A stretch of 64,000 bases of DNA from a virus (taxonomy: Duplodnaviria; Caudoviricetes). The first letter of the stretch is position 1, and every line of letters starts with the position of its first letter. The stretch lies in the IMG/VR virus record IMGVR_UViG_3300016725_000002, positions 32,001-96,000 of that record; one strand, given 5' to 3'. This document shows positions 1,229 to 46,000 of this stretch, piece by piece. The notes under the pieces were generated by a model, which saw nothing but the letters and a program-made list of their open reading frames with translations, was not told where the DNA came from and made no database searches. The translations under genes were made by a program, and so were the position numbers.

Positions 1229-2059
1229 CTATTTAAATTGAGTCTGAAAAGTTGTAAATAATGTATTAGCTGCATCAATAGTTGTAGTAGCATCCAAATT
1301 AGTTAAGAAAGTCTTATATAATGAATAATATTTATTATATATTGATAATTTATCTAATGCTTCTAAATACAAAGAAAGAGTATCTAACAAAGCAGCATCA
1401 TTTTTATTAACTATTTCTAAGTATTTATCTTCCCTATTTTCTTCAGTAACAATGAAACCTGCGGCAGCAAGCTTATTGTTATTTATTACGAAATCAAAAA
1501 AGTAATAAGACATAGAATCATCTAGTCTAGTTTTTGTTAACTCAAGAGCTTTATTCTTTAAATATACTTTTAATACCTGCAAATCTGTTAAATTTTCATC
1601 ACTAATAATAAGAATATCATCCTGTGATAATATAGCGGATCCGCTATCTTTTAAGGTAACTTTACTAACTGCCATCTCCATATCTTTAGTAGATAAATAA
1701 TCGAACATTGCTTTAGTTACCATAACAAATAAATTAGGGTTCCAAGTTTCGATACTTGATACAGATCTAACGCCAATAATATATCTAACTGAATTTCTAT
1801 CGCTAATAGGAGCTAAATAAATTGTATATAATGTATTTGCACCATCCACAGTATATGTATAATCTGTCACATTTTCAAGTATCTTTGAAGTATCAGTAAC
1901 TTCAACCTTACCGGAAATTATTAAATCTGTAAGAACACAATAAATAGACTTAGTAACTTCAATGTCATTTTTACCTAAAGTATATGTATCTTCTTTAGTT
2001 GAAAGAGATTCAATTATATTTTTAGAATCAGTTGTCGCGTAAGTAGCAATGTATTTCAT
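1229..2059 (-). CDS. rSAM-cluster-associated protein; C-terminal half similar to 40348..40929
   Basis: 276 aa, GGAG RBS; shared pattern K.KA......R......F(F/Y)D(F/Y)...L.L(Y/F)(L/I)(E/D)A...Y..Y..F. Confidence 0.7.
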   Translation of the reverse strand: MKYIATYATTDSKNIIESLSTKEDTYTLGKNDIEVTKSIYCVLTDLIISGKVEVTDTSKILENVTDYTYTVDGANTLYTIYLAPISDRNSVRYIIGVRSVSSIETWNPNLFVMVTKAMFDYLSTKDMEMAVSKVTLKDSGSAILSQDDILIISDENLTDLQVLKVYLKNKALELTKTRLDDSMSYYFFDFVINNNKLAAAGFIVTEENREDKYLEIVNKNDAALLDTLSLYLEALDKLSIYNKYYSLYKTFLTNLDATTTIDAANTLFTTFQTQFK

Positions 2060-2071
2060 GGTTTGTTCTCC

Positions 2072-3142
2072 TTAGTTCTGGTTTAATTTGTGTTGTAAAA
2101 AATGATTAACTTGTTTAGAATACTTTAGGTAAAAGTTAGAAGCATATTCATAACAAATTTTGTATAATTCACAAATACAATTAATAGGTTTACTCTCTTT
2201 AAAGTTTCCATATTCAAGTTGTGAATAGTTGCAGCCCATATTACATTCAAGTTTTATTGAACATGTTGCACAATGTTTATTATAAACTGGATGAAACATA
2301 CTAGATATTTTCTCAATTAATGAACCGTTGATTTTTTGTTCTTTATAGTTACCTAGTTTAAATACATTATTAGAAGCAAATCTAGCACAAGGAAAAATAT
2401 CTCCATTCTCTTGAATACTTACTCCATGAGTACCAGAAAAACAAGTGAATGGACGTTTACCTTTAGTATTACCCATAATGCAATCTAATAAATATAATGA
2501 ATATATACCGGGAATGGGTACGTTGCCAGTTTTATCTACATACTTTTCAATAATTTCATTTATAATATCTAACTGCTGTTTAAATATTAAAATATCTCCA
2601 AATTGCCAAATATTATCTCTTACTAATGAAAAATCAGGATATAATATTCCTTTTTCTAGGAAGAACTCAAAATTTTTACTAAATGATGAAATGTTGAGTG
2701 GAGAAAGCATACACTTAACTCCACGCATTTTCATTGTTTCTAATAATGAAAGAGGAAATACATCAATTGTTTTATTTACTCTTGTATTAGCATAAGGTCC
2801 ATCATAACTAATACCATATGAAATATTTAACTCGTCCAATTCCTGTATATATTTAGGAAGTAAATAACCATTAGTTTGAACATGATGTGGAAAAGATGGA
2901 GTATATTTTGTTATACTTTTAATTACCTTCATATTCAAAAGTGGTTCTCCTCCAAAGAAAGCAATTTCTGTTTCCTTTGAAAAAGAATTATATTTTCCAA
3001 GTTCAGCGCGTATTTCAGGTAAATAATTTAATGCTTGTTTAAAGCTTTTTAAAGTTAAAGATTTGGTTTTAGTTTGATTTATATAGCAGTAAGTACAATT
3101 TAAGTTACAGGCATTTGTAACTATTGTTTCTAACTGAAACAT
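2072..3142 (-). CDS. Radical SAM/SPASM domain protein (peptide-maturase-like)
   Basis: CNLNCTYC, FFGGEPLL, QTNG; SPASM-type cysteines CFSG...FPCARF...CATCSIKLECNMGC...CIC. Confidence 0.92.
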   Translation of the reverse strand: MFQLETIVTNACNLNCTYCYINQTKTKSLTLKSFKQALNYLPEIRAELGKYNSFSKETEIAFFGGEPLLNMKVIKSITKYTPSFPHHVQTNGYLLPKYIQELDELNISYGISYDGPYANTRVNKTIDVFPLSLLETMKMRGVKCMLSPLNISSFSKNFEFFLEKGILYPDFSLVRDNIWQFGDILIFKQQLDIINEIIEKYVDKTGNVPIPGIYSLYLLDCIMGNTKGKRPFTCFSGTHGVSIQENGDIFPCARFASNNVFKLGNYKEQKINGSLIEKISSMFHPVYNKHCATCSIKLECNMGCNYSQLEYGNFKESKPINCICELYKICYEYASNFYLKYSKQVNHFLQHKLNQN

Positions 3143-3452: not shown

Positions 3453-4277
3453 TTAGAAATGGTCGAATAATTTTAAAGTAACCATATCTTCAACGACATT
3501 CTCACTGCCAGGTATACCGTAATTTTTCTTAGTAAATAGAGATCTATTGCATTTTTTACATATTGCACACGCATGCTCACATATTGAGATACGATAGCAT
3601 TTATATAAATATAAACTGGTTTTAGTTAATTGTTGTTTAACTTTTGACAGTTCTTCTCTTCCAATTTCATCCATTAAACCTTGATAATCATAGTTAACTC
3701 TAATCTTCTTTTTATTATTATGTATTAGATTCTTATCTTTATTAGGATAAAATAGTTCTAACATTGTTACTATTTCTTCTAAAGAAGTTTTAACTGTTTT
3801 GGTTGTAATTGTAAAACTCAAACCGAATGGTATATCTAATGAGTTAAGCAAATTTAAGTTATCTTGAACTATTGTAGAATTTGGAGTACGAACATTTTGA
3901 TATGAACCATCATAACTAACATCTAACGATACATGAACTGAATTACTAGTTAATATTTTCTTTAAATTAGAAAGATTCTTTTTAATTAGTGTTCCATTGG
4001 AAATGATGTTTATTGCAATATTCTTTCCAAGAGTTTGTGCAGTTTTTTCACAAAAATTATAAATATACATTATCTTTTTCATTTCCAATAAAGGTTCACC
4101 ACCCATTAAACATAATGTACTATTATTTGATTTCTCAACTTCTATAAGAGTATTTAAATACTTATCAATTTCTTCATAGTTAATGATACGTTTTTCACGT
4201 TCTTTACCTTGTTGCTCATAACAATAAGGACAATGAAGATTACATTGATTAGTTAAATAAAGTACATTAACATTCAT
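3453..4277 (-). CDS. Radical SAM protein
   Basis: CNLHCPYCYE, MGGEPLL, ISNGT, SYDG; C-terminal CEHACAICKKC. Confidence 0.9.
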   Translation of the reverse strand: MNVNVLYLTNQCNLHCPYCYEQQGKEREKRIINYEEIDKYLNTLIEVEKSNNSTLCLMGGEPLLEMKKIMYIYNFCEKTAQTLGKNIAINIISNGTLIKKNLSNLKKILTSNSVHVSLDVSYDGSYQNVRTPNSTIVQDNLNLLNSLDIPFGLSFTITTKTVKTSLEEIVTMLELFYPNKDKNLIHNNKKKIRVNYDYQGLMDEIGREELSKVKQQLTKTSLYLYKCYRISICEHACAICKKCNRSLFTKKNYGIPGSENVVEDMVTLKLFDHF

Positions 4278-4596
4278 TCTTATGCTCTAATGAATGTAAT
4301 CTTAAACTTAATGCTTGAATAGATAATTGTTGAAATTTTATTAAATCTACAAGTATAGGAATTAATTGCGTTGAGTCAATAAAATATTCAGATGAAGTTA
4401 GCTGTTTTAACATTTTAAATGATGAAAATTCATGTTCAAATTCCTTTAAATCAAATGTAATTGTTTTCTGCCCAAACTGATCTACATGTAATACACTAGA
4501 TAAATTTAACACTTTATTCATTAATTCTGTTATTTGAAGTTTATCATTAATTTCTTTTAATTTTTGTAAATTATTTAAATCTGATAACTTATCCAT
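4267..4596 (-). CDS. Small protein resembling the C-terminal part of a tail-fibre intramolecular chaperone (peptidase S74-like)
   Basis: IDSTQLIPILVDLIKFQQLSIQALSLRLHSLE resembles the S74 chaperone end motif plus coiled coil. Confidence 0.5.
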   Translation of the reverse strand: MDKLSDLNNLQKLKEINDKLQITELMNKVLNLSSVLHVDQFGQKTITFDLKEFEHEFSSFKMLKQLTSSEYFIDSTQLIPILVDLIKFQQLSIQALSLRLHSLEHKNEC

Positions 4597-5404
4597 CTTT
4601 ACCTCCTAAAATACGAATGATTTCATCATTTGAATCTAAGTATCTATTAGTTAGTTTATTAACTACTAGATCACTAAATCTATAATATGAACCATCTTTT
4701 ACCTTAGCATTATTAATATAATTAATACGCTTCTTATAGAAGTAACATTCATGAAATAACCGTGGATGTGGATCAAAGTATGCGGAATGATAATATACAT
4801 ATTCATCAAATTGTTCAAATAGATTATTTACATGTTGTTCCTGTTTAACAAAATAGGGTTTATTAAAACTAGCTGCATAATTATTTGCATTTAAGTTATC
4901 AATATCACCGGGACAATTTAAGTATAAAGCTTCTTTAACATTAGATAATGGTTTAAAAAATTCAAATGCAAACTTCATTATATACTTTTCATCACAGTAT
5001 GCAAATGGCATTTCAGTAAAATATGTTACATTGTATTTACTTTTATCTAACATAACATGTGTAGAATCAGTTAACTCTGTAACTATTGTTATATGTTTCG
5101 CTCTTAATAAACCATGGATGTGTGTAATAGTTCCCCAATCTAATATTACAACTTCATCAAACTCTTGTTTTATTAGTTCAATCTTTGGTACTATTTTTAT
5201 TTTATCACTTAGATCATATGGATAGTTATAACGGTTATTAATCAAATATAATAAATGTTGCTTATAATCTTGTATACTATAATGAGGAATATCTAGTAAG
5301 ACTAAGTAAACAGGAGAAGTTAAATTAGCTACCATGAAATATTCTAAAGCATCAATAACACTACCTGTTACTTTATTATGGGTCATTTGAAAGATTACGT
5401 TCAT
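4589..5404 (-). CDS. Putative glycosyltransferase-like (GT-B) protein
   Basis: FDEYVYY...FDPHPRLFHECYFYKKRINY parallels IDPFPNALLEALQCGKQII of 39477..40364. Confidence 0.45.
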   Translation of the reverse strand: MNVIFQMTHNKVTGSVIDALEYFMVANLTSPVYLVLLDIPHYSIQDYKQHLLYLINNRYNYPYDLSDKIKIVPKIELIKQEFDEVVILDWGTITHIHGLLRAKHITIVTELTDSTHVMLDKSKYNVTYFTEMPFAYCDEKYIMKFAFEFFKPLSNVKEALYLNCPGDIDNLNANNYAASFNKPYFVKQEQHVNNLFEQFDEYVYYHSAYFDPHPRLFHECYFYKKRINYINNAKVKDGSYYRFSDLVVNKLTNRYLDSNDEIIRILGGKDG

Positions 5405-20250: not shown

Positions 20251-21089
20251 CCATAGTCCCTGTTTATGAAACTTTTGTTTAGGCGTGCATTGACAACTTT
20301 GTCTGTTTTGTGTGCGTCCATATCATAATAATAACAAGCATCGCACATCTTATTATATTTAAATAATGTTCCTCTTAATAAGCTACGCAGGTTTTCTGCG
20401 GTAACGGCATAACTCTCTGATTCTTTAAAAAAGGAACATTGATTAATTTGTTTATTATACAGTGTAATAGATGGCATATGTGAATATGTTGAACATAATA
20501 TTCTATTGGTATCACATGCATGTTGTAATACAGATACTGCATATTTATCTTGTCTATCAGAATAAAATTTAATATATTTATTTAACTCTTTAACTTGAAC
20601 AGTATAATTTAGTAACATCTTATACACAGTATTTTGTGGTAGATACTTCATTAATTCAGGGGAAAGACTATTTAACACATTATCAGTCAATACTAAAATA
20701 TTAGCACATTTTTCTGTTACAAAAGGAAGTTGTGTATTATACTGAATAGCACCATCTACTATATCTTGAATAAGATGTTCACAATATAGTCTAAATTTAA
20801 CACAAGATACTAAATCATAATAGTGATCTCTAAATAAACCATTAGACATAACTTGAAAATAATTCACATATTTATTATCTATTACTTTACGCAATAATTG
20901 GGGCATATTTGAAATTAAACCTGTTTCTCCACCAGAAATTTCAAGATATAGCGGAACAGCTAAAGAGTTAAGTATATATTCAACATAATCAACATCTATT
21001 TCAATTAAATCTGTACTATTTTTTATAAAGTCACAGTAATAACAATTGCTGTTACACTTATTATGGGTTATTAAGCTTAGGAAAAACAT
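20238..21089 (-). CDS. Radical SAM protein, short family
   Basis: CNSNCYYC, SGGETGL, MSNG; C...C...CDACYYY. Confidence 0.88.
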   Translation of the reverse strand: MFFLSLITHNKCNSNCYYCDFIKNSTDLIEIDVDYVEYILNSLAVPLYLEISGGETGLISNMPQLLRKVIDNKYVNYFQVMSNGLFRDHYYDLVSCVKFRLYCEHLIQDIVDGAIQYNTQLPFVTEKCANILVLTDNVLNSLSPELMKYLPQNTVYKMLLNYTVQVKELNKYIKFYSDRQDKYAVSVLQHACDTNRILCSTYSHMPSITLYNKQINQCSFFKESESYAVTAENLRSLLRGTLFKYNKMCDACYYYDMDAHKTDKVVNARLNKSFINRDYGWFW

Positions 21090-22048
21090 AAGGAATGTTG
21101 GATAAACTTTATTGTATTTTCATCTAATTCATTATAATTCGGCAAGTATAAAATATCAGGAGTATATTTTGCATGATATACTATACAACTTTTAAAGAAA
21201 AAGTCTCCTTCAAAATCAAAAGAGGTAATAGTTTTATAATTATCATCGGAGGTTAAGTCTACTTTTCGCTTAACAAATTTGTTAAATTTAGCAATAGTAG
21301 CAGAAGCATTACATGCAATACATAATCTACTTGGTGAGGTTTGATCTTCCGCATGAATAACATTAAAAGGTAAGGATTCATATACACGTTGACGTTCTGC
21401 AATAATAGATGAATAATCATAAGTAATAAGTCGTTCTAACGCTAGTGTATTCATTTGTAAATTTAAACCTAACGCAAATGATTTATTACCTCTATGGAAA
21501 TTACCTTGAAACTGACATTCCATGAATCTTTCTAATAATGCAGGGTTGTTTATTATGCCACAACCACCTTCACCTAAATCAATAGTTTTCTTTTCAGAAA
21601 AACTTAAACATGAAATATCACCAATACCAAATGTATTAAAATCAGGCATAGTTGAACCAAGTGAATTACATGAATCTTCAATTAATACAATATTTCGCGC
21701 ATCACATAGTTCTCGGATTCGTAATATATCTCTATCAAGAATACCTAAATGGTAAACATAAATGATAGCACTAACTGCATAATTATCTACTAATTCTTTC
21801 ACACTGTCATAAGACATACATAAAGTATTAGGATTCACATCGGCAACCGCAATATTCAGTTTCATAAACCTAGCTACATTAAACCAAGCATGATAGCCAT
21901 AATTCGGGCCAATAACTAAACTACCTAATGGGGCATCACAACTATATAATGCACACATTAATGCAGATGTACCACTATTAGTAAAGACAACCGGAGATGT
22001 TGTCTTTGTTGCAGTATTGATTATAGATGCAGCTTGTTGTTCTAGCAC
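21077..22048 (-). CDS. DegT/DnrJ/EryC1/StrS family PLP-dependent aminotransferase
   Basis: FTNSGTSAL, LIEDSCNSLGS, SFSEKKTIDLGEGG (PLP lysine motif); GTG start with GGAGG RBS. Confidence 0.9.
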   Translation of the reverse strand: MLEQQAASIINTATKTTSPVVFTNSGTSALMCALYSCDAPLGSLVIGPNYGYHAWFNVARFMKLNIAVADVNPNTLCMSYDSVKELVDNYAVSAIIYVYHLGILDRDILRIRELCDARNIVLIEDSCNSLGSTMPDFNTFGIGDISCLSFSEKKTIDLGEGGCGIINNPALLERFMECQFQGNFHRGNKSFALGLNLQMNTLALERLITYDYSSIIAERQRVYESLPFNVIHAEDQTSPSRLCIACNASATIAKFNKFVKRKVDLTSDDNYKTITSFDFEGDFFFKSCIVYHAKYTPDILYLPNYNELDENTIKFIQHSLCFS

Positions 22049-33996: not shown

Positions 33997-34005
33997 AAGT
34001 TCTCC

Positions 34006-34647
34006 CTATGTATTAATTTGAGTGTAGTTAAATTTAGCTAAGGTATTAACATCAAATTCATTATTCCTAATACTTCTAATTAATTTATCTTCTTTACTAA
34101 ATATCAAGTAAGAACCAAGAGAAAAACCTGCTTCATACATGTAAATCAGACCCGTTTCTTCATAAGATTGGCTTTTTGTACCGGAAGGAGGAAGTGTCGG
34201 GTCTTCAAAAGCAGTCAACGAGCAGTCAAGTTCAATATCAATACTGTCGTTTATATAAAACTGCACTGGAATTTTACAATTATTTTGAAGCGCATAATAT
34301 CTAGTAAGTAAATCAAAGCTAGAAAGTTCATCCTGACAATACAAAGTACATGAAAATGTCATAATAATAGGACGCACATTTAATACAAGCGATTTGGTTC
34401 CACCAGCATTATCAGTCATTTGAAATCTAGTTGGTTTAGATGGCCCATTTCGTTGGCTGATTTGAGTTAATGTAAATATTAACCCAGGAAAGGTAATCCT
34501 ATCATCTTTAAGTTTATTAAAATACGCATCTGAATCACCATAAACAACCACGCCAGGATCGTTATTTTGATTTAAAATAGGGTCAGTACCTTCAAAAAAG
34601 AATGACTTTAGATATGCCGCAGTATGGGCAATACTTGTTCTAATCAT
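34006..34647 (-). CDS. Putative tail completion / neck protein
   Basis: Between capsid and sheath genes; ITFPGL...RPI.MTF pattern; assignment mostly positional. Confidence 0.4.
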   Translation of the reverse strand: MIRTSIAHTAAYLKSFFFEGTDPILNQNNDPGVVVYGDSDAYFNKLKDDRITFPGLIFTLTQISQRNGPSKPTRFQMTDNAGGTKSLVLNVRPIIMTFSCTLYCQDELSSFDLLTRYYALQNNCKIPVQFYINDSIDIELDCSLTAFEDPTLPPSGTKSQSYEETGLIYMYEAGFSLGSYLIFSKEDKLIRSIRNNEFDVNTLAKFNYTQINT

Positions 34648-34997
34648 TTTATTATACTAGCAAATACTTCAACTTTTAATGTATTAGTTATCTTTATTCC
34701 CTTTAAACCTTCACATTCATATAGCAGCATATTACATTTTTCTAGTGTAACTATTTCATCTGTGGTTGTTATTAAGTTAATTGTGAATGGCTTTTCATCT
34801 CCGAAATAGTTACTAAGAAAAATGAATGTACTGCTATTAGACACATCAAAATACTTAAATTCTTCAGGGGCAAATTCAATCTTTGGCATATAATTAATGA
34901 AATTAGATAAGTTACAACCACGACTATATGAACCTAGTTTATTGCGGGTTTTATCAACACTTAAACCTAAAGATAGATCAATGTGAAGGGTTGACAT
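34644..34997 (-). CDS. Hypothetical protein
   Basis: 117 aa, GGAG RBS. Confidence 0.6.
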   Translation of the reverse strand: MSTLHIDLSLGLSVDKTRNKLGSYSRGCNLSNFINYMPKIEFAPEEFKYFDVSNSSTFIFLSNYFGDEKPFTINLITTTDEIVTLEKCNMLLYECEGLKGIKITNTLKVEVFASIIK

Positions 34998-35013
34998 TTA
35001 TACACTCCGTAGT

Positions 35014-35057
35014 AAAAAAGCCCTTCGATAACTTGTAACGGTTATCGAAGGGCTTTT
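35014..35057. terminator. Rho-independent terminator ending the capsid operon
   Basis: aaaagcccttcgataac-ttgtaacg-gttatcgaagggctttt stem with T-runs. Confidence 0.88.
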
Positions 35058-35088
35058 GAGGTCTTAGTTCCCTAAAACCGTTGAGGTT

Positions 35089-35493
35089 TTACCACTTGGT
35101 GTTGGCGAGGCGGGCCACAGAAGCAGGAACCATGACCTTGCTGGTCATTGTGCCGCCGTCATCGTCCGGGTCGGTGTTGGTGTCGTCAGGATCAGTGTCG
35201 TCATCGTCCGGGTCGGTGTCGGTGTCGGTGTCCATGTCGTCATCAGCGTCATCATCGGCGCTGTCGAGTTCATCCTGGTCAGTGTCGAGCATGTCTGTGT
35301 CCATGTCGTCATCAGCATCGTCTTCAGAAAAGCCGAGAGATTCGGCAACGCCGTGCATAACGGGGTCAAGTTCCTGACCCTCGCAAGCAAGGCACATCAA
35401 ACGACCGGCTTCTTCAGCCTGACCAGACTTGCCAGCAATATAAGCCTGAGCTAACAGGCGGCCCTTTGTCACAATTTTAGCGTTGATCTTCAT
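35089..35493 (-). CDS. Small Asp-rich head-associated protein
   Basis: DDADDDMDTD twice and DPDDD repeats; GC-rich codons like the capsid gene; AGGAG RBS. Confidence 0.7.
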   Translation of the reverse strand: MKINAKIVTKGRLLAQAYIAGKSGQAEEAGRLMCLACEGQELDPVMHGVAESLGFSEDDADDDMDTDMLDTDQDELDSADDDADDDMDTDTDTDPDDDDTDPDDTNTDPDDDGGTMTSKVMVPASVARLANTKW

Positions 35494-35521
35494 GTTTGTT
35501 CTCCTGAAAACTAGTCAGCGA

Positions 35522-36577
35522 CTAGCTGTTAGCGAGGCGTTTGCCCTTAACGATAGAGCGGGTGTTGGCGACCATCATGGAAGTGATCTGGTCGAAGAAC
35601 CAACCACGCTTGGACTGGCCCTGATTGTAGGTATTGATGGGCTCCGTAATCAGATTACGGGCATGCATCACACCGTGGTATTCAGGGGAAGCAATGGCGT
35701 ACAGGTCGCCAGCTTCGAGAACACGCATGTTGGGGCCGCGCACGGCGTCAGACACGATATTCACGCCATACATCTGGCCGATTTCGCCAGTCTGAAGCAC
35801 TTCGTACTGGGTAACGGGGTCAAACACCTGCTGGAACTCTGAACCAGAAATGATATCCTGGTACAGGTTTGAGGAAATGAGCAGGGTTGAGGGCGGCAGG
35901 CCTTCGTTCGTGATAATGTTAATCATGCGGGCGAAGATCTGCGGGGTGAAGGACATGAAGCTCTGCACGTTGTAGCGTGAAGTCGCCGCCACGTCAGCCA
36001 GCTTCTTCCAGAAGCGGTCTTCCGTGACCATGAGGGCTTCAAGGCATTCATCGTATTTTTCTTCCAGCAGGTCGTTGGGGCTGCGCTGGATTTCCATGTT
36101 GGTGATAAGGATTTCGCTCGTGATGCTGAACTCGTTCAGGATCTGGCGGCGTTCACGCGCTTCCACGGGGATGACGCGGCTTTCACTGGACATGGCGTAG
36201 GCAATGGCCTGTTTGTCACGCATGGTGACATAAGGCAGGTCGCCGGATTCCAGAGGTTTGAACTGGAGGAAACGGCGGGCAAAGCCGTCACGGTTGGTCT
36301 GGTCGAGAACTTCGCTTGTAACGGCTTCCGCAAGAATAGCCATTTTGTGGCCGCTCTTGTCAGTGGAGGCTTCAACGAGAGCCTTGGTACGTTCGCGGCG
36401 GGCGTTGACGTTGGCTTCGATGGTAGCCTTATCTTCAAACTTGCCGGAAGCAAGCAGTTCAATAGCTTCTTTCACCTTGGTGATTGCGTCAGCCTTGCAA
36501 GAGGCGTTGATTTCACCGCCATTGTTGAACAGGACGGAACCCCTGCTCTTTGATAAGCCAGGAACTAGAGTTTTCAT
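35522..36577 (-). CDS. Major capsid protein
   Basis: 351 aa; HK97-like pattern (RDGFARRFL...EEKYDE.LEALMVTEDR..GEIGQMYGVNIVSD); GC-rich codon bias; position after scaffold/decoration genes. Confidence 0.8.
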   Translation of the reverse strand: MKTLVPGLSKSRGSVLFNNGGEINASCKADAITKVKEAIELLASGKFEDKATIEANVNARRERTKALVEASTDKSGHKMAILAEAVTSEVLDQTNRDGFARRFLQFKPLESGDLPYVTMRDKQAIAYAMSSESRVIPVEARERRQILNEFSITSEILITNMEIQRSPNDLLEEKYDECLEALMVTEDRFWKKLADVAATSRYNVQSFMSFTPQIFARMINIITNEGLPPSTLLISSNLYQDIISGSEFQQVFDPVTQYEVLQTGEIGQMYGVNIVSDAVRGPNMRVLEAGDLYAIASPEYHGVMHARNLITEPINTYNQGQSKRGWFFDQITSMMVANTRSIVKGKRLANS

Positions 36578-36602
36578 GTGATTCTCCCTTTAAATCTTTA
36601 CG

Positions 36603-37265
36603 TTATATACGAATGCCCAGGAAGGGAGTGTCAACGCCGGGCACTGACACAACAGAACCGGGAATGGCAGCCAGAGTGCCGTTGCTCGCCTGCATGCCAA
36701 CCAGACCTGTAGCGGTCACGCACAGTGACATAGAGGTGTCAGCGAAGTTGGCTTTGGCGTCAAACTGGTCAGTATACACGATACCTTCCATGATGACGCC
36801 GATGCTGCCCAGCATGTCGGTTGAGGACATTGTGGGGATAAGCACGCGGTCTTCCATAAGCACTTCAGTTGTGCTGGGTGCGTAGCGATACTGCACACGC
36901 ACGGCCATGCCCTTGTTGGCGTCGGGCACTGTCACTTCTTTGCCGGAGACTGTGCATTCAATGGCGGCGCCAGATGTGGCTAGGTACACGGAAAACTGGC
37001 CGGTCAGGGGCTCGTTCTTGAGGATCAATTTGCCAGTTTCGGAGTTGGCGGTCAGCACTTCAACGGCTGATTTGGTGAGAGGAGTGAGGGATTCAGTGTA
37101 GCTGAAGCCCACGAAAGGAGCAACGGTGGTGTTGCCCTGACGAACACATTCCTGCCCGTTCACGATTTCACGAACGAGGGGAAGACCTTCTGCATTCACA
37201 GTCTGGCCGGGGACGATGGCGATTTCCTGTGAATTGAGAATCATTAATCTACCGGTGTGTAACAT
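36603..37265 (-). CDS. Putative capsid decoration / head structural protein
   Basis: Directly upstream of the MCP, same codon bias, beta-rich, ends PFLGIRI. Confidence 0.6.
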   Translation of the reverse strand: MLHTGRLMILNSQEIAIVPGQTVNAEGLPLVREIVNGQECVRQGNTTVAPFVGFSYTESLTPLTKSAVEVLTANSETGKLILKNEPLTGQFSVYLATSGAAIECTVSGKEVTVPDANKGMAVRVQYRYAPSTTEVLMEDRVLIPTMSSTDMLGSIGVIMEGIVYTDQFDAKANFADTSMSLCVTATGLVGMQASNGTLAAIPGSVVSVPGVDTPFLGIRI

Positions 37266-37286
37266 GGGATTTCCTCCAAAAAAGAA

Positions 37287-38537
37287 TTAACGCCGGCGAA
37301 GATTCAGCCGACTCTTTAATTCTGTAACAGAATCATCCTTCACAGAAGAAGTAATTTCCGTCACAGAAGGGTCGAGTAAACGCATGCTACTAGCATTCAA
37401 CGCGGCCCGCACTTTATGATGTTCGGCATCTTCAGCAGTAAAACTGCCGGTGTTTGCCGCACAAATCATAGCCTTAGTTTCTTCAAACACAGGCTGAGGT
37501 TTCTTTAAAAGAGCCACAGCCTTTGCAAGAATGGAAGCGTATAGGGTTGTAGCATTGTTTCCCAATACGGAGCTAACGCAAGCTTCAACCCTCTCACGAG
37601 GAATGCCGCTACCAATTAGCTCATTCATCATGTTATCTCGTAATTCTTTATTAATATCTGGGTAAATGCCTTTAATGCCACCTTCAGTAGCTAACGCCAT
37701 GCACTCGATTAAACGAGGAAGGACGCTATCATTGATTCGGGCTTGAGCAAGGCTTTCAATGTACGCAGGAGTTAAAACTTTATTGCTAAATATTGAACCG
37801 CCAAACTTAGATACGGCGGAACCGACACCTTCAGTTTTGGCTATATGCTTAAATCCAGAAATCATGGAAGTGGTTCCAAAGATACTCTGAATATCAGCAG
37901 AACATTTATTACGTTTAAAGACGTACATTGGATTGCCAGTCTTTGCACTGAAAGCAACCAATGTTCCGTCCGGGCCATTCTCGGCATCGTTTACTGACTT
38001 CCACTGAAGGTCATCAGTATCATCCAAAGATGATTTAACATCATCCTCGGTGTCAGTGGCCCTATTATCAATAACGTCATCATCAACTACGGAATCATCA
38101 TCGTTAGCGTCGTCATCTGACTGGTCATCTGCGTTGACTTCATCGCAGCTACCGTCAGTGCATGCGGCATCAGAAAAGGGGTCAGTTCCATCTTCTGAAT
38201 CATCCGCAGAATTGCATTCAGAAGCTTCACATAATGAAGCTCCGCCGCAAATAGGACAATATAAAGAAGCACTTAATTCAGAACAAGTACGATTGGCATT
38301 TGCAATGCCAAGTTTTGCGCCGCAATCCGTACAAGTAATTTCAGCTTTGTCGGTTTGGTTTACACCAGCAAGCACGTTTGCTTTAACTTGTGTACCTTCA
38401 CCTTCAAACTTCTCGCCACAATGAGGGCAAATGGTAATTTCATTCTTGCTGCCAAGAATTGAGTTACCACAAGCTGTGCAGGAGAACTTTGCAAGAGCTG
38501 ACTTTGACGAATTGGCTGTTATAACCAATGTATTCAC
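37287..38537 (-). CDS. Putative prohead scaffold/core protein with Zn-ribbon N-terminus
   Basis: Four CxxC pairs, acidic linker, helical C-terminus; upstream of head genes; many [VIL]xA sites. Confidence 0.5.
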   Translation of the reverse strand: MNTLVITANSSKSALAKFSCTACGNSILGSKNEITICPHCGEKFEGEGTQVKANVLAGVNQTDKAEITCTDCGAKLGIANANRTCSELSASLYCPICGGASLCEASECNSADDSEDGTDPFSDAACTDGSCDEVNADDQSDDDANDDDSVVDDDVIDNRATDTEDDVKSSLDDTDDLQWKSVNDAENGPDGTLVAFSAKTGNPMYVFKRNKCSADIQSIFGTTSMISGFKHIAKTEGVGSAVSKFGGSIFSNKVLTPAYIESLAQARINDSVLPRLIECMALATEGGIKGIYPDINKELRDNMMNELIGSGIPRERVEACVSSVLGNNATTLYASILAKAVALLKKPQPVFEETKAMICAANTGSFTAEDAEHHKVRAALNASSMRLLDPSVTEITSSVKDDSVTELKSRLNLRRR

Positions 38538-39476: not shown

Positions 39477-40364
39477 TTAAAGGTGATTAACGCACCAATC
39501 ATACAATGTTGCAGACGGGCGCATATCATAACACCAATCTTGGTCAAGTAAGTGTTGATAAAAGATGCTAAAGTTTTCACTAGTTAGCCCGGTAGTTGTT
39601 GCGTAGCATTTATCACTATATACATCTGATAAAGTCGTATGATAATTAGATACACAACTAAGTATATCATCTATACCATCAACATGGTTTCTTGCAGGTA
39701 AAGTAGGACATATAATTTGCTTACCACATTGTAATGCTTCTAACAAAGCATTAGGAAAAGGGTCAATGAACATTGCGCTTTTAGGAAAGTAATAATGAGT
39801 AATATGATTAAAGAAATCAACTGCATCATGTGTATGATAATGTTGTTTAATCATTGGATGTGTTAGATATGTAGTAGCATTACCCATAGTTACTAATGAA
39901 ATTGGTTTAGTTAACTGATCTAATTCATAACGTAAATACTCAATTGCATCTGGATTTGTATGAACTCTAGCATAAAAACCAACTACGGGTTCGGTTGGTT
40001 TAGAGTCAACTGAAAAGTTAGTAATCATTGGTATAAATGCGTTAAAGAAGTTATTACTATTATACATACTTAATCCATTAGTTATAGGTCGTTGAAGAAA
40101 CTTATTTACACTATTTCTAATATAAAAAATCATATTCAATCGCCTAGCTTTAATTACATTATAATGAAATGCGTATAATTCTGGAGCTTGAAATGTACTA
40201 ATAACTTTAAATTTAGTTGTTAACTCTTCTAAATTTGGTATTTCCGTATCAACTTTAAAATTAAGATTATGTTCTACACAAAATCGTTTTGTTACAGTAT
40301 ATGACCCACGCTTAGCCAAGTCATACTTCTTTCCAATTAAACAATATTTAGAAGAACTTTTCAT
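39477..40364 (-). CDS. Putative glycosyltransferase (GT-B/GT4-like)
   Basis: VVGFYAR and DPFPNALLEALQCGKQII resemble the GT4 donor-binding signature; start placed at MKSSSKY (ORF track extends to 40382). Confidence 0.6.
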   Translation of the reverse strand: MKSSSKYCLIGKKYDLAKRGSYTVTKRFCVEHNLNFKVDTEIPNLEELTTKFKVISTFQAPELYAFHYNVIKARRLNMIFYIRNSVNKFLQRPITNGLSMYNSNNFFNAFIPMITNFSVDSKPTEPVVGFYARVHTNPDAIEYLRYELDQLTKPISLVTMGNATTYLTHPMIKQHYHTHDAVDFFNHITHYYFPKSAMFIDPFPNALLEALQCGKQIICPTLPARNHVDGIDDILSCVSNYHTTLSDVYSDKCYATTTGLTSENFSIFYQHLLDQDWCYDMRPSATLYDWCVNHL

Positions 40365-40929
40365 TATATACCTTAAATGCACGCTTAATTTCTGCTATTG
40401 ATTTTGCTACTGCAATTTCTTGGCAGAAATGTATATAAATATCATACCAATTCTTCTTTTTATCCATTTCATTTTTAGCATCAATAAATAACTCTAATAT
40501 TGTTTCATCTTTATCATTATTTGAATCTAATACTTGTTCAATCAATTGCTCCAATGAAGTATATTTGTAATGAGATAACAAATATGAATACATTGTATAA
40601 TCATAAAAAGCAACATCTAAGTTATCTTGTTGAGAACGAGAGTTTAGTATTATTCTAGCTTTTAACTTGAATGATTTTTTAGCATAATCCAATTTTTCAA
40701 TACTAGAAATAACTTCTTTGTTAACATTTAATTGAGATATATGTTCCAACTTTGTAGTTGAATCAATAGTTATAAATCCTAAGCCTAAATCAAAAGTATT
40801 ATGGATATTACGCAAATAACGATATACTTCATAGCTACATTCTATATAATTCTGACTAGTATTATTTACCTTTATAACCCCGGTAATCAAAATAGTATTA
40901 CCGGGGTTAATTATAGCACCGTATTTCAT
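40348..40929 (-). CDS. rSAM-associated protein, paralog of 1229..2059
   Basis: C-terminal ~120 aa align by eye with 1229..2059; GGAG RBS. Confidence 0.65.
   Translation of the reverse strand: MKYGAIINPGNTILITGVIKVNNTSQNYIECSYEVYRYLRNIHNTFDLGLGFITIDSTTKLEHISQLNVNKEVISSIEKLDYAKKSFKLKARIILNSRSQQDNLDVAFYDYTMYSYLLSHYKYTSLEQLIEQVLDSNNDKDETILELFIDAKNEMDKKKNWYDIYIHFCQEIAVAKSIAEIKRAFKVYNEKFF
40875..40909. promoter_or_regulatory. 13-bp perfect hairpin just downstream of the Cys-rich protein gene
   Basis: taaccccggtaat-N9-attaccggggtta; no T-tail. Confidence 0.5.
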
Positions 40930-40947: not shown

Positions 40948-41400
40948 TTAATAATAATAATAACGATTAGAATAGTTACAATCGCAAGTACATCCATATG
41001 CACAGTTGCAGCTACAATAATTACAATTACAGGTGCAATAATTGCACTGACATATGCAAACAGCTTGAGAAATATTAATAGCATTTTGAATTTGAGCTAA
41101 TAATCTATTAGTAACTTTTGCCCCAATAGCATAGTTATTCCATGTTATTGCAGCTTTACCATCATTTGCATTACAAGTATTTATACTGTTAATTATAAGA
41201 GATAATGCAGAATTTTTAGCTTTATTACCAACAGCAATTGATTCCCATGCAGGAACTGCTTTACCACGAATGTTTAATTCTGCTGTTAACGCATTAATTG
41301 TTTGGGAAAAGAAAAGAGGTTTTAATTTTGCACCTGCAGTGATAACACTAGTCCACTGAGTTTGTGCTCTAGGTCCTATTACCTGATTCGTACATGCCAT
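40948..41400 (-). CDS. Cys-rich repeat protein; candidate rSAM modification substrate
   Basis: C-terminus CICQCNY-CTCNCNY-CSCNCAY-GCTCDCNY-SNRYYYY; overlaps the end of the rSAM/SPASM gene. Confidence 0.8.
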   Translation of the reverse strand: MACTNQVIGPRAQTQWTSVITAGAKLKPLFFSQTINALTAELNIRGKAVPAWESIAVGNKAKNSALSLIINSINTCNANDGKAAITWNNYAIGAKVTNRLLAQIQNAINISQAVCICQCNYCTCNCNYCSCNCAYGCTCDCNYSNRYYYY

Positions 41401-42472
41401 ATTTTTTCCTTTGTATTTTTATGAGTGCATATGTAAACTTAGATATTTCTTGTTGAATTAAACAAGCATTTTTATCGCAGGCATAATCTGTTAATTTAGA
41501 GGAATATCTAACTTTATTACTTTTATCATAATTATGAATAGGACATTTATAACAAACTAATGTAGAACATTTATCACAAGCCGAAGGTTGTTTATATGTA
41601 CAATTTAAACCCATCATTGACTTTATACTATTATTAAATATATCACCTCGTACATGTTGATTCTTAGTTGGACTAAAAATACAGCCATGACATAGATAAA
41701 CTATTCCATCACAATCAATACATAAACTATTATCACCTGCAGTACAAAATTGTCTATTATGTGCAAACCAATTAAAGTTATGTTTTGTATTGTTAGTTAC
41801 TATATCTGTTAATATTGTAGTTAATTGATTTCTAAAGGTTTGAAGAGTCTCAGTTGAAAATTGTGGAAATGGTGCATCTGTAACAAAATTTAAACGTAAG
41901 TTTACATCTAATGCAGGATTAATAGTTCGCAGTTCTTTACGAAGTTGGCAGTAATTAAAATAAATTTGTTCAATATATGTAATTTGTGAAGGTTTAATTG
42001 TAGCTTTCAATGAGAATAAAATATCATTTTCAGCTAAGGTTTTAATATTTTTAAGTACCTGAGTATTTGAAGATTGACCTTTAATATTCAATCTATTTAA
42101 ACTTTGAATCGGTTCAAAATCATAACTAACTTGGAATTGAAAATTATACTTACGCCATTTTTTAATATAAGGTATTAATTTATCTATCTCATATCCATTA
42201 GAACTAGTAAAAAATGATTTTACATATCCGTGTAATTTACTCATTATATAATCCATACTCTTATATTCAAGAGTTGGTTCCCCACCCCAAAATACAATAG
42301 AGATTGTATGTGCTGCACCTAATAATTGTTTAAATTCTATTATTCTTTCAATACTCTTATCAAGGACTTCTTTACTAGTACGAATTGGTTCATAACTGCA
42401 CCCACTCTCATAGCAATAGGTGCAACGTAAGTTACAGCTATGAGTTAACATTAAATCTATAGTATAGTTCAT
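41369..42472 (-). CDS. Radical SAM/SPASM maturase
   Basis: CNLRCTYCYE, WGGEPTL, SSNG; CTAG...YLCHGC...CDKCSTLVCYKC...C. Confidence 0.92.
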   Translation of the reverse strand: MNYTIDLMLTHSCNLRCTYCYESGCSYEPIRTSKEVLDKSIERIIEFKQLLGAAHTISIVFWGGEPTLEYKSMDYIMSKLHGYVKSFFTSSNGYEIDKLIPYIKKWRKYNFQFQVSYDFEPIQSLNRLNIKGQSSNTQVLKNIKTLAENDILFSLKATIKPSQITYIEQIYFNYCQLRKELRTINPALDVNLRLNFVTDAPFPQFSTETLQTFRNQLTTILTDIVTNNTKHNFNWFAHNRQFCTAGDNSLCIDCDGIVYLCHGCIFSPTKNQHVRGDIFNNSIKSMMGLNCTYKQPSACDKCSTLVCYKCPIHNYDKSNKVRYSSKLTDYACDKNACLIQQEISKFTYALIKIQRKKYGMYESGNRT

Positions 42473-42490: not shown

Positions 42491-42865
42491 CTATAATGCA
42501 ATAAAGCTTGCAGCGTGGAATGAGAAGAATTTAGTACCGTTACAAACAATCATAATACCTTCATTGGGAGATAAGGATTTGGAAGCATCATTATCAATTA
42601 GTTGCGTACTTAAAGAAGATTTAACTGTTATTTCAGTAGATCCATTATTTTTAATAAATAAATGAAATCCATCACTTAACGCTGTAGCATTGGGTAATGT
42701 GACAGTAAATGTACCACTTCCAGAAAGGAATTTACGGTAGTCATCAGAAGTTACAGAATAGTTAGCAGTTATTTCAGAAACAGTAATAGGACTACTAAAC
42801 TTTTGCATATTTTTAACTGCATTCATTATGTCTTGTTTTTCTTTCAGGGTGAAGGTATATGCCAT
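42491..42865 (-). CDS. Small tail-fibre/baseplate beta-sandwich protein
   Basis: TVTLPNA...FIKNNG...IVCNGTKF; same domain type as 42875..43276 and the C-terminus of 52472..53338. Confidence 0.55.
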   Translation of the reverse strand: MAYTFTLKEKQDIMNAVKNMQKFSSPITVSEITANYSVTSDDYRKFLSGSGTFTVTLPNATALSDGFHLFIKNNGSTEITVKSSLSTQLIDNDASKSLSPNEGIMIVCNGTKFFSFHAASFIAL

Positions 42866-42874
42866 GTTAAACTC

Positions 42875-43276
42875 CTAGATTATCCACCATTTATTACCGT
42901 CATACATAAGACGAACACCGTTTAATGGATCAAGTATAAGACCTATATCTCCATCTAATGCAGTATTAAATGTAATCTGTTTAGTAGCATGAATATTTTT
43001 CACATAAATAATATAACCCGCAGTAGTAGATGATAAAGTAACATTAATACCTGCATACGATGAACTTTCTATTAAGTATGTAGAACCCGGAGTAGGTGTA
43101 ATAGAAAACTTTTGATTATCTTGAGTAGCAGTAAGTAATACTATTTCAGTAGAACCACCATTTGCTAATTTATAAGTACCATCATCCGCAAGAAATTTTT
43201 TACCATCACTATCAATTATAATACGACCTATCTTTTCATTGAGAGTATCTAAGTTTCTTAGAACTTTTGGTTTCAT
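42875..43276 (-). CDS. Small tail-fibre-associated protein
   Basis: DGKKFLADDGTYK; VTL...IYVKN...LMYDGNKWWII. Confidence 0.55.
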   Translation of the reverse strand: MKPKVLRNLDTLNEKIGRIIIDSDGKKFLADDGTYKLANGGSTEIVLLTATQDNQKFSITPTPGSTYLIESSSYAGINVTLSSTTAGYIIYVKNIHATKQITFNTALDGDIGLILDPLNGVRLMYDGNKWWII

Positions 43277-43284
43277 ATTATCTC

Positions 43285-44022
43285 CTACGCCATAACAACT
43301 ATTTCAGTACCAGCATCATAAGAATCATAAAATTTAATACTATTACTAACAATACCAGATGTACCAATTTCATTATAAGCATAATAGTTACTATCTGAAC
43401 CACCAACACATAAAACACCATCTACAAAAACAAGTAAAGCATTAGTTCCCACTTTATAGCTAGGAACACTTATATCTGTATCAGCAATTAATTTACTTGA
43501 TAAAATAGTGACCATTTTGGTAAGGCTTGAGCCACCAGAACCACCACTTCCACCGTATGCATCAACAATCTTTTTAACTAAAGCAGGTGTAGCTGCTTTA
43601 TCCTCACTAGATACATCAAAACCAGAAGCATATAAAGTTAAACCTGCATTAACTGTAGTAGCCATGCCAATGTCAGAAGCAGCAGGGCCTAAATCATTGA
43701 TAAAACCATGAACACGGGCGGAAACGCCAATAGTATCACTATAAACATAAATAGTTTCCTGCGTGCTAACAACAACACGGGATTTAGTAAAAGTAGATCC
43801 ACCATCAATAGGCTGGTTAAATACAATATAATCTTCAGTATTAACTGAATCAGTAGATGCAGGAATAATTGCTATTCTAACTTTTGCTCGGGTGCCACCA
43901 CGATTGCACATGACTATATCTACGGTAGCAGCATTGGTACTGCTGTTATACCATATTTTAGTCAGCACACCTTGCTGACAATCTAGTTTACCAAATACAC
44001 CGCTTGTAACGGACATAGACAT
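43285..44022 (-). CDS. Tail-fibre-associated structural protein
   Basis: ATTVNAGL...AATP fibre repeat, Gly linker, LLVFVDGV domain. Confidence 0.55.
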   Translation of the reverse strand: MSMSVTSGVFGKLDCQQGVLTKIWYNSSTNAATVDIVMCNRGGTRAKVRIAIIPASTDSVNTEDYIVFNQPIDGGSTFTKSRVVVSTQETIYVYSDTIGVSARVHGFINDLGPAASDIGMATTVNAGLTLYASGFDVSSEDKAATPALVKKIVDAYGGSGGSGGSSLTKMVTILSSKLIADTDISVPSYKVGTNALLVFVDGVLCVGGSDSNYYAYNEIGTSGIVSNSIKFYDSYDAGTEIVVMA

Positions 44023-44106
44023 CTCCTCTTCATAATGATACTAGGGGAATACCAGTATAAACTAGTATCCCCCTAGTGTTTAGTAGCTGATTAAATCAGC
44101 GTTCAA

Positions 44107-45420
44107 TTAAGCTTTAACGTGGGGGTACACAACCACAGAATAAGCGATATCCTGTGTCAGTGTTTCGGCCAGGGTGATGGTGGTGCTGTTGGTCAGCACG
44201 AAAGCATCACTGGACTGGCGAATGCCGCTCAGGTACACTTCAAAGTAGTACACGCTGGAGATGGCAGTGCCCAGAGTGATGGTGCTGCTGCCGGAAGCAA
44301 CAGTACCTTCATAGGTGGTCACAGCGGTGACGGCAGGAGTGGAGCTGATTTCCACGAAGGTCTTGCCGGAGGCAGAAGTAAGCACATACACCTTTTTGGC
44401 GTATGTGTCAGACGCACCGCCTGTAACCACGAACAGGAAGCCTTCCTGCGCGGCGGTGGGAACCAGAGTGGCAAAGTCAGTAGCAGAACCCTGCCAAGCC
44501 ACGGCAGTGCGGCTCAGGCGTGAGTCATTGCCTTCGCAAGCTGTGCCCGCGGTCGTGCCGTAAACGGCAGTCAATGTAACGTCAGCAGACAGGGCGCCGC
44601 CGCCGGAAAGACCAGTGCCAGCGATAACCTGACGGGTAATCGGCACAACGCTGGTGATCTTGGTGTCCGTCCATGCGCTGGTGTCACTGTCCCACACCCA
44701 CACGGAGTCAGTGGCTTCAACGATAGCGTAGGAACCAGCTTCAGGAGCAGGATTTGCGGCCACAAGGGCGGCTTCCGTTGTGTAGTAACCCTTGAGCAGT
44801 GAGGCCTGCTTGATTTCCTTGGTGACGTAGGTTTTCAGGTCAAGCGCGGTGGTCTTCTTGTTGTCCGTACCCAGCTGCATCGGCAGTAAGGTGACGTCCG
44901 TAATGTCAGTTGAAGCCAGCGCGGCGAAACCAGAGAAGTCCTTGTTCAGCTTGAGGGCCAAACCATCGGTCAACTGCTTAACCTGCACAGCGCGGTCAGT
45001 AGCTGTTCCGGTGGTAATGTCACCAGCAGAAGCAATCTGCACAACACCGGGAGTGTCAGTGGTAGCCAGGGCGCCGCCAACGGTCACGTCATTGCCGTTA
45101 GCAGTAACGGTCACGCCCGTGCCAGCTTTGATGTTGGAAGCGATAAGCTTGGTGTCAAGAGCGGTCTGAAGGCCAGTCACCTTGTCAATGGTGATGCCGC
45201 CCACGAGGCCAGAACCGGCGATAGGCGTCCATGTCAGGGCTGACGCGCCGATGGTCTTGAGCATGAACAGAGCTTGTGTGTCGTCTTCGAGGAAGAGGAA
45301 GTTCACGTCACTTGCGGTGACATTGGCGGGAAGCATGCCAGTGCGGTCAGCACTTGTGCCTGTCCAACGAACTGGCTGGGGGTTTTTGAGTAAGGAAGTA
45401 GGGATACGTGTGATACTCAT
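44107..45420 (-). CDS. Abundant fibre/whisker-like structural protein
   Basis: A/T/G-rich; ATTDTPGVVQIAS, AGTGLSGGG, GTTAGTACEGNDSRLS; GC-rich codon bias like the MCP. Confidence 0.7.
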   Translation of the reverse strand: MSITRIPTSLLKNPQPVRWTGTSADRTGMLPANVTASDVNFLFLEDDTQALFMLKTIGASALTWTPIAGSGLVGGITIDKVTGLQTALDTKLIASNIKAGTGVTVTANGNDVTVGGALATTDTPGVVQIASAGDITTGTATDRAVQVKQLTDGLALKLNKDFSGFAALASTDITDVTLLPMQLGTDNKKTTALDLKTYVTKEIKQASLLKGYYTTEAALVAANPAPEAGSYAIVEATDSVWVWDSDTSAWTDTKITSVVPITRQVIAGTGLSGGGALSADVTLTAVYGTTAGTACEGNDSRLSRTAVAWQGSATDFATLVPTAAQEGFLFVVTGGASDTYAKKVYVLTSASGKTFVEISSTPAVTAVTTYEGTVASGSSTITLGTAISSVYYFEVYLSGIRQSSDAFVLTNSTTITLAETLTQDIAYSVVVYPHVKA

Positions 45421-45800
45421 GGTTTTTCTCCACTGTTTTTGGTTAGAAGTCTAATGACTTCATCTGAAACATTAATGTTTTTAATTTTAGCATTAGGCCT
45501 TAATTGTCGCCACAATTGGTACAAAATAGGGTCATTTTTACATGTGTATTCTTTACATGTTTTAGGTCGTATCTCATATATTGTACATCTGTTATCAGAG
45601 CCGAGAAACGGACAAACCAATCCCGGCCCCTTTTTCAATAATAATAATGTTTTACCATCCTTTACAAAAACATTAGCTATATCACTAATGTTTTTATTAA
45701 ACTGCGTAGCAACACGCTTGGCTTCTTCATATGTTAACTTAATCTCGCCAGCTACAACGCAGCATAGACCAGGACATGAATTGCAACGCTTTACTTGCAT
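45417..45800 (-). CDS. YkgJ-family (CxxCxxCC) Zn/Fe-chelating protein
   Basis: CNSCPGLCC, CPFL...CTIYEIRPKTCKEYTC. Confidence 0.85.
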   Translation of the reverse strand: MQVKRCNSCPGLCCVVAGEIKLTYEEAKRVATQFNKNISDIANVFVKDGKTLLLLKKGPGLVCPFLGSDNRCTIYEIRPKTCKEYTCKNDPILYQLWRQLRPNAKIKNINVSDEVIRLLTKNSGEKP

Positions 45801-46000
45801 TATAACTCCGATAATTCTCGCATTGCTTTAAGCATATTTTCCCAATTAGAATAGATAAGTTTGCTATTTTTCTTCATTCCAACGAATTTTTTAGCTCTTT
45901 TACTGATTATTTGGTATAACTTAAAGAACTCATTCTTTTGTTCTTCAGTAATACCTGAATCCTCAGATTTAGCTTCAATTTCAATATAATTGATTTTCAT
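45800..46000 (-). CDS. Hypothetical protein
   Basis: 66 aa, GGAGG RBS. Confidence 0.6.
   Translation of the reverse strand: MKINYIEIEAKSEDSGITEEQKNEFFKLYQIISKRAKKFVGMKKNSKLIYSNWENMLKAMRELSEL

Follow-up and report, generated by a model that had tools for sequence, protein, structure and literature searches.

A phage Cys-heptad protein encoded beside a SPASM-type radical SAM enzyme: a candidate cassette for the maturation of a virion fibre protein

The stretch of phage DNA analyzed here, called the window, comprises 64,000 nucleotides (positions 32,001 to 96,000) of the IMG/VR virus record IMGVR_UViG_3300016725_000002. The record is 161,660 bp long, is estimated to be 59% complete and has a GC content of about 27%; all coordinates are counted from the first letter of the window. 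An open reading frame (ORF) on the minus strand (40948..41400) encodes a protein of 150 aa with an array of Cys residues near its C-terminus, and the gene of a radical S-adenosylmethionine (SAM) enzyme of 367 aa, designated enzyme A, lies directly upstream on the same strand (41369..42472). The Cys-array protein contains 14 Cys, 12 of them within the 29 residues 115-143 (40972-41058). These residues form four CxCxC(N/A)Y heptads, namely CICQCNY, CTCNCNY, CSCNCAY and, after a single G, CTCDCNY; together with the tail SNRYYYY (residues 144-150) they make up the last 36 residues, and the protein ends in AVCICQCNYCTCNCNYCSCNCAYGCTCDCNYSNRYYYY. The whole 161-kb record contains one such array.

The Cys-array protein was delineated by its ORF, an alignment of relatives and an AlphaFold2 model. 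Residues 1-114 (41059-41400) carry three repeats (AGAK...INAL, VGNK...INSI and IGAK...QNAI) and were modelled from an alignment of 22 relatives as a domain of three strand-helix units with block means of 74-93; the confident helices H28-44, H63-77 and H98-113 coincide with the three repeats. A Foldseek comparison with the PDB yielded no match for the model. As relatives of this domain, the three beta-alpha repeats of BARA/Beclin and TssK were tried and rejected, their VIA-align Z scores of 6.9 and about 5, respectively, being below the level of kinship. The start of the gene overlaps the 3' end of the enzyme A gene by 32 nt. This overlap is real, since the MACT start of the protein is kept in relatives and is preceded by its own ribosome-binding site, AAAGGA. 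A scan for promoters and terminators gave no signal above that of shuffled sequences. The heptads, the three helical repeats and the gene overlap had been described in an initial annotation made from the letters of the window, and all three were recovered here. Of 1.84 billion cluster representatives, 682 belonged to the family of the Cys-array protein at E ≤ 1e-3, and 124 did so at E ≤ 1e-30. A tblastn search of GenBank phages with the 150-aa protein gave no match, the low-complexity filter having probably masked the motif, which is present in Campylobacter phage CP220.

Enzyme A was assigned by Pfam, NCBIfam and a profile match to CteB. It matched Radical_SAM (PF04055) at 1e-10, above the cut-off; the SPASM model of Pfam, PF13186, gave no report. 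Only 12 residues precede its CX3CX2C motif, and it thus has no N-terminal RiPP recognition element (RRE). Over 17 orthologs, C13/C17/C20 of this motif and the sequence FWGGEP were invariant or nearly so, as were seven C-terminal Cys (C243, C261, C299, C302, C307, C310 and C337), whose positions match the SPASM part of CteB in the alignment; these features confirm the enzyme as SPASM-type, as initially annotated. The top NCBIfam match was PapB (NF047865), which aligned over the full length; its 94.7 bits lie far below the 340 bits required of a PapB equivalog. It was followed by nif11-peptide, DynA, anSME (55 bits, full length) and CXXX-repeat maturases; the cyclophane synthases AmcB, YhhB and GrrM matched weakly, with 31-43 bits. 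When the family profile of enzyme A was compared with structures, CteB (5WGG/5WHY) was matched at 9.6e-26, over CteB residues 101-423 only, followed by 8VPO and then anSME. By these comparisons, enzyme A resembles SPASM maturases of Cys-containing peptides, most closely the thioether synthases PapB and CteB, and is a member of no curated equivalog.

The association of array and enzyme was analyzed from both sides. On the array side, a back-translated (CxCxCNY)x2 pattern was run over viral records and matched 52 loci in 50 records. The reversed pattern had no match in the same 50 records; hence, the heptad motif occurs far beyond chance. PF04055 genes were present in 45 of these heptad records, usually 7-16 in each, and enzyme A was matched at E ≤ 1e-10 in 41 records, about 39 of which hold near-full-length orthologs (27-32% identity, E ≤ 1e-24). 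The occurrence of CxCxCNY repeats beside SPASM genes in other phages, to which the initial annotation had directed attention, is thereby established. Wherever both positions were listed, enzyme and array were encoded on the same strand and at most about 5 kb apart, and in the listed heptad records the enzyme lay upstream of the array, the CP220 group excepted. Both genes were directly adjacent, like those in the window, in at least 12 heptad records. In phage CP220, the 534-aa protein CPT_0180/gp140 contains ACLCDCNY(CTCDCNY)x6, and a homolog of enzyme A with 28% identity is encoded 2.9 kb from it; the same heptad and enzyme are carried by the cultivable Campylobacter phages CP220, CPt10 and CP21.

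Tandem paralogs of the Cys-array protein were observed in three loci, with four copies in L116:9765-12362, three in L129:9489-11555 and two in L070:7132-8280. Their N-terminal parts differ and their four heptads are nearly identical; they look like swappable tips with one common modified module.

On the enzyme side, a single-sequence search with enzyme A found no related viral loci, and an alignment-based search was needed. It revealed 255 relatives among 2.9 million viral contigs, and the best 80 of the 255 loci were analyzed. At 46 of these 80 loci, an ORF on the same strand contained three or more CxCxC motifs. Most of the remaining loci showed a degenerate array, e.g. CICNSDCSCNSVCTCNNNCECNY, in a protein of 155-275 aa encoded directly downstream of the enzyme, and divergent arrays such as CICNSDCSCNSVCTC also occurred directly downstream. 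In total, a Cys-dense protein was encoded no more than 6 kb away and on the same strand at 70 of the 80 loci (72 when two wrongly filtered loci are counted). Furthermore, a conserved partner protein of about 200 aa, designated f203, was encoded right after the Cys-dense protein at 60 of the 80 loci. From 255 relatives in 2.9 million contigs, chance co-occurrence would be expected in about 0.004 records, as compared to about 40 observed. The exact heptad pair is nearly restricted to viruses: over one genome each of 185,579 species it had five matches; a radical SAM gene stood directly upstream in two of these, and one was the same contig as a viral record. Comparative genomics over dozens of phage contigs strongly supports a gene pair that is not due to chance and whose products would be enzyme and substrate.

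A sequence logo was calculated from 408 heptads of 52 proteins. The three Cys were present in 100% of the heptads. Position 2 was T in 70%, position 4 was N, D or Q (49, 40 and 8%; 97% together), position 6 was N in 92%, and position 7 was Y, F or H (79, 9 and 8%; 96% together). Heptads follow each other without spacing or are separated by a single A or S. Each unit therefore holds two C-x-x-(N/D/Q) motifs, leading from the first Cys to residue 4 and from the third Cys to residue 6, and one C-x-x-x-T motif.

Additional genes of the window, all on the minus strand, belong to families found in the cassettes of the relatives. Downstream of the array gene, 40348..40929 encodes a diverged f203 member of 193 aa, which was recognized over its full length by the family hidden Markov model (HMM) at E 1.7e-7 and lacks the family motif GYFITDxNREEKYLEIxETGDE in the alignment. 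Its AlphaFold2 model (pLDDT 80) contained a small N-terminal beta part and long helices and had no match in the PDB by Foldseek. The adjoining gene at 39477..40382 encodes a glycosyltransferase-like protein of 295-301 aa that matched Pfam Glyco_trans_1_4 at 3.3e-5, below the cut-off. In the cassettes most similar to that of the window (L033, L070, L133 and L036/L008), its homologs are encoded by the ORF that immediately follows f203 (phmmer 1e-29 to 6e-50).

Further members are located in locus 1, about 38 kb from the array. A second SPASM radical SAM enzyme, B (356 aa, 2072..3142; Pfam Radical_SAM and SPASM), is the ortholog of the second radical SAM gene product of T4-like cassettes with strict heptads (phmmer 1e-50 to 4e-56). 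A third radical SAM enzyme, C (274 aa, 3453..4277; Pfam), is the ortholog of their third one (phmmer 1e-19 to 2e-32). Directly after the gene of enzyme B, a canonical f203 partner of 276 aa, to which a partial repeat is added at the N-terminus, is encoded at 1229..2059 (family HMM E 7.5e-29); it keeps the family motif as GFIVTEENREDKYLEIV. The 271-aa product of 4589..5404 belongs to f265 (family HMM E 2e-54), a family of about 265 aa that comes after f203 in many cassettes. This protein had no sequence match in the PDB and may be GT-B-like; comparison of the 39477-40382 product with f265 by hhalign gave a probability of 4% and one short shared motif, FDPxP...E.

Among the 80 enzyme loci, 32 encoded A, B and C, 15 encoded A and B, and 28 encoded A alone; the window phage has all three. 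After dereplication, B/C accompanied strict CxCxC[ND][YFH] arrays in 29 of 32 loci, as compared to 4 of 23 loci with degenerate arrays (Fisher 3e-8, uncorrected for relatedness). The suggestion made at the outset that enzymes of locus 1 also act on the array gains support from this correlation and from the orthology of 2072-3142 and 3453-4277 to B and C of the cassettes.

The genes of B and C are part of a 22-kb minus-strand operon (1229-22923) with at least 14 Pfam Radical_SAM matches; the whole record has 19 PF04055-like places. Also encoded in the operon are a DegT/StrS-type aminotransferase (21080-21958) and four proteins of 528-565 aa, each of which carries its radical SAM domain in the C-terminal half. 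Its members tied to the Cys-array cassette are rSAM-B, rSAM-C, f203 and f265 only. An S74-like label for the 109-aa product of 4270-4596 was not supported: Pfam gave no match at E ≤ 0.1, BLASTP reached E 1.3 to a standalone S74, and phmmer found no match in the loci. At the end of locus 1, a 122-aa protein (801-1166) shows an internal duplication (..GHGTI..CKCS.. / ..GHGTI..CRCL..); it had no Pfam match and no relatives in the fetched loci.

The pair of array and enzyme A genes lies after tail/fibre genes and before head genes. Four structural genes encoding 124, 133, 245 and 437 aa are located upstream on the minus strand (42491..45420; PHROG, Pfam) and are regarded as context, not as proven partners. 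All four had initially been called fibre-type. Clear PHROG tail/fibre matches were obtained for two of them (44107-45420 at 2e-12 and 43285-44022 at 1e-7), a weak one for 42491-42865 and none for the fourth gene.

The Peptidase_S74 chaperone domain (S74) is a hallmark of phage fibres and spikes. In many relatives of the Cys-array protein, the sequence SD(E/R/I)RLKxxIxY, which is the start of Peptidase_S74, stands right after the last heptad. S74 scored above the Pfam cut-off after the array in L115 (2.8e-8) and L063 (2.3e-7), and in L140-142 a separate S74 gene of 124 aa is next to the array gene. Additionally, the model of the 150-aa protein best matched a viral cluster of 274 members in the Atlas, 91% of which carry S74 (TM 0.70), and its N-terminal domain resembled the N-terminal parts of viral fn3/Ig-rich proteins (TM about 0.6). 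The proposal of the initial annotation that the substrate is a virion fibre protein is supported by these links in relatives and in the Atlas cluster; the window protein itself does not share the S74 domain. We infer a virion location of the 150-aa protein from its relatives, since it has no S74 of its own. In the list of gel bands for CP220 (PMC2853527), no CPT_0180 homolog is named, and neither CPT_0180 nor CPt10_1891 came up when the supplementary tables for IBB_35 (PMC3322345) were searched for these terms; neither result shows absence.

Many rows of the relatives' alignment end about 12 residues past SD(E/R)RLK. In L097:7065-8047 the rest of the S74 domain is found in the following ORF, and L140:5001-5891 is also split; this separation could be a frameshift, a readthrough or a true two-gene arrangement. 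In two array contigs that have no radical SAM gene (L020:2-5373 and L021:7236-13797), a giant fibre protein of 1535-2007 aa with collagen-like GSAGSAG repeats precedes the array protein, the units of which are CPCDCNF/CTCDCNY.

The capsid protein of the window showed 32-35% identity to its counterparts in PaBG, phiRSL1 and related jumbo phages. This capsid type was found in none of the 50 heptad records. A T4-type Gp23 capsid was present in 17 of them, among these every one of the six records with a completeness of 90% or more. Thus, the cassette occurs in at least two capsid lineages. The capsid gene region (34000-38000) and the region of the 437-aa fibre gene (44000-46000) have a GC content of 42-50% as compared to about 27% for the genome, a striking shift in local composition. 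Next to the head genes, a 416-aa protein (37287-38537) contains several CxxC zinc-ribbon-like pairs, matched only weakly by zinc-ribbon models of Pfam, and after them an extended run of acidic residues. Directly upstream of the fibre genes, 45417-45800 encodes a 127-aa member of the CxxCxxCC family (PF03692, 3.5e-10; putative zinc- or iron-chelating, YkgJ-like).

From these comparisons, we consider it reasonably probable that the locus is a phage-encoded protein-maturation cassette in which enzyme A thioether-cross-links the Cys array of a 150-aa virion fibre protein. Thioether formation is favored because of the motifs in the heptad and because of the precedent of CrpA, in which C-X-X-Q/D motifs are combined with a SPASM thioether synthase. 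Enzyme A would act on the C-terminal CxCxCNY array of the protein encoded just downstream, and the Cys thiols would most likely be joined to nearby side chains in intramolecular, ranthionine-type thioether bridges. The folded three-repeat N-terminal domain may serve as a handle for the RRE-less enzyme A or for the partner of about 200 aa. Enzymes B and C, encoded 38 kb away, would probably complete the modification of strict heptads. The expected product would not be a secreted peptide; it would be a rod or knob of the virion fibre, hardened chemically and resistant to proteases and redox change. Tentatively, A, B and C might each take one Cys per heptad and build a continuous ladder of thioether rings at the fibre tip, possibly glycosylated, an architecture unknown in virus particles and RiPPs; we regard this extension as possible, with considerable doubt.

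Several observations weigh against thioether cross-linking of a fibre protein by enzyme A. No modification has been observed so far, and virion proteomics for any member of the Cys-array family was not found in the literature. By Pfam, the 150-aa protein has neither S74 (PF13884) nor any other recognised virion domain, and its heptad array was modelled by AlphaFold2 at a pLDDT below 50. Enzyme A scores far below every NCBIfam equivalog cut-off and has no RRE, so that its assignment to a family does not reveal its chemistry. PapB requires a carboxylate as acceptor, which would make Asn unusual in this role. Related phages contribute to the counts of co-occurrence, which thus lack phylogenetic independence. 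Homologs without radical SAM neighbours, named in the initial annotation as evidence against its proposal, do exist: in five of the 50 array contigs, which are 13-60 kb long and 7-33% complete, radical SAM genes are lacking altogether, also upstream of the array, against 45 contigs that have them. In these five, the enzyme is therefore either encoded at a distance or dispensable.

The same enzyme and substrate could be joined by another radical chemistry, i.e. C-C bond formation of the cyclophane type between the aromatic residue at position 7 and a side chain nearby, oxidation of Cys as by anSME, or epimerisation. Position 7 of the heptad is always aromatic (Y, F or H, at the frequencies of the logo), and enzyme A resembles anSME in having no RRE and a size of about 370 aa; the matches to AmcB, YhhB, GrrM and anSME agree with such an activity. 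However, PapB and CteB score clearly higher, and Cys is the absolutely invariant feature of the array, even in degenerate arrays without an aromatic position. The anSME sequon is C/S-x-P/A-x-R, and it is absent here. We therefore judge a different chemistry to be rather unlikely.

It is more improbable still that the array is a metal-binding or disulfide-zipped element, comparable to the metal needle of T4 gp37 or to metallothionein, with the enzyme acting elsewhere. Metal-thiolate proteins typically have CxC runs, five array contigs lack radical SAM genes, and with many radical SAM genes per phage, 19 PF04055-like ones here, proximity could be partly incidental. Nevertheless, adjacency and strand are kept with one radical SAM family over very different arrays and in two capsid lineages, this family resembles maturases of Cys-containing peptides, and the observed co-occurrence exceeds the chance expectation by far (about 40 records against about 0.004). 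Finally, the 150-aa protein has the small size and the leader-plus-core-like layout of a RiPP precursor and no virion domain, but release of its modified C-terminus as a toxin or host-manipulating peptide, with the N-terminal domain as leader, is very unlikely, since the cassette has no protease or transporter, S74 would cut after the array and leave it on the N-terminal domain, the N-terminal 110 residues are confidently folded and similar to N-termini of viral fn3/Ig-rich proteins, and the genes are placed between fibre and head genes. The families of the neighbouring genes likewise included no transporter or leader peptidase, in agreement with the initial annotation.

If thioether cross-linking of a fibre protein by enzyme A is correct, the array would be the first enzymatically cross-linked virion component, as far as could be found; full-text searches revealed no report of phage structural proteins being modified by radical SAM enzymes. 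It might help to explain the up to 19 radical SAM genes of some T4-like and jumbo phages, and the modular seven-residue unit together with RRE-less maturases would extend the means of engineering hyperstable proteins. Direct tests of the system are possible, since the cultivable phages CP220, CPt10 and CP21 carry both heptad and enzyme. Timms et al. (2010) reported a 21-bp repeat in CPT_0180 as well as 11-12 radical SAM genes in CP220/CPt10 without connecting them, and called the abundance of radical SAM genes in these phages puzzling (PMC2853527).

Cross-linking of Cys-rich sequences by radical SAM enzymes is known for small antibiotic-like peptides and, since 2026, for one archaeal protein. 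In PapB/PapA (freyrasin) and CteB/CteA (SCIFF), a Cys-rich substrate is encoded beside the enzymes that match enzyme A best, as it is in the window. The candidate substrate here differs in being a folded protein and not a leader-core peptide; the short precursor and the protease or exporter typical of RiPP clusters are replaced by a 150-aa protein with a folded domain of 110 residues and no genes for export or leader cleavage. The first approximately 100 residues of CteB, its RRE according to the CrpC study (PMC13692751), have no counterpart in enzyme A.

The closest precedent is the 28.8-kDa protein CrpA of Methanococcus voltae, in which ranthionine thioethers installed by the SPASM enzyme CrpC were demonstrated by mass spectrometry in 2026; its C-X-X-Q/D motifs lie in 17-residue repeats, with Cys consistently placed before the acceptor residues (PMC13692751). 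As in the window, a SPASM radical SAM enzyme is encoded beside a Cys-repeat protein and not a short peptide, and the Cys are located in C-terminal repeats (PMC13692751). CrpC, however, has an RRE and belongs to TIGR04463, and CrpA is archaeal and without a known structural role, whereas the window system is viral, is linked to domains of the fibre type and combines an RRE-less enzyme with a seven-residue CxCxCNY unit. Phages are not mentioned in the CrpC paper (PMC13692751).

A modified protein that stays in its assembly is exemplified by QhpC, the gamma subunit of quinohemoprotein amine dehydrogenase: according to the same source, QhpD installs Cys-to-Asp/Glu thioethers in this subunit, which is kept in a larger assembly (PMC13692751). 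The proposed window system would be alike in placing radical SAM thioethers in a protein that remains in an assembly. QhpD itself is unlike enzyme A, which matched TIGR03906 with 32.6 bits in the N-terminal part only, and QhpC has three cross-links, no repeat array and no viral origin. Fibres and spikes of the endosialidase type resemble the relatives, in which the array end ...CNCNY-SD(E/R)RLK... is followed by S74 in the same or the next gene; the window protein, ending in its Tyr-rich tail, differs from them. To our knowledge, the known S74 fibres have neither a Cys-heptad array nor a radical SAM partner. The CXXX-repeat target system (TIGR04115, PF27846) also pairs a Cys-repeat target with a SPASM maturase. 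TIGR04115 matched enzyme A over its full length with 54.3 bits, below the cut-off of 350, and an Atlas cluster with 23% PF27846 members matched the window protein with a feature score of 0.86; the repeat found here is CxCxCxx with an invariant N-aromatic pair, as opposed to Cxxx in that system.

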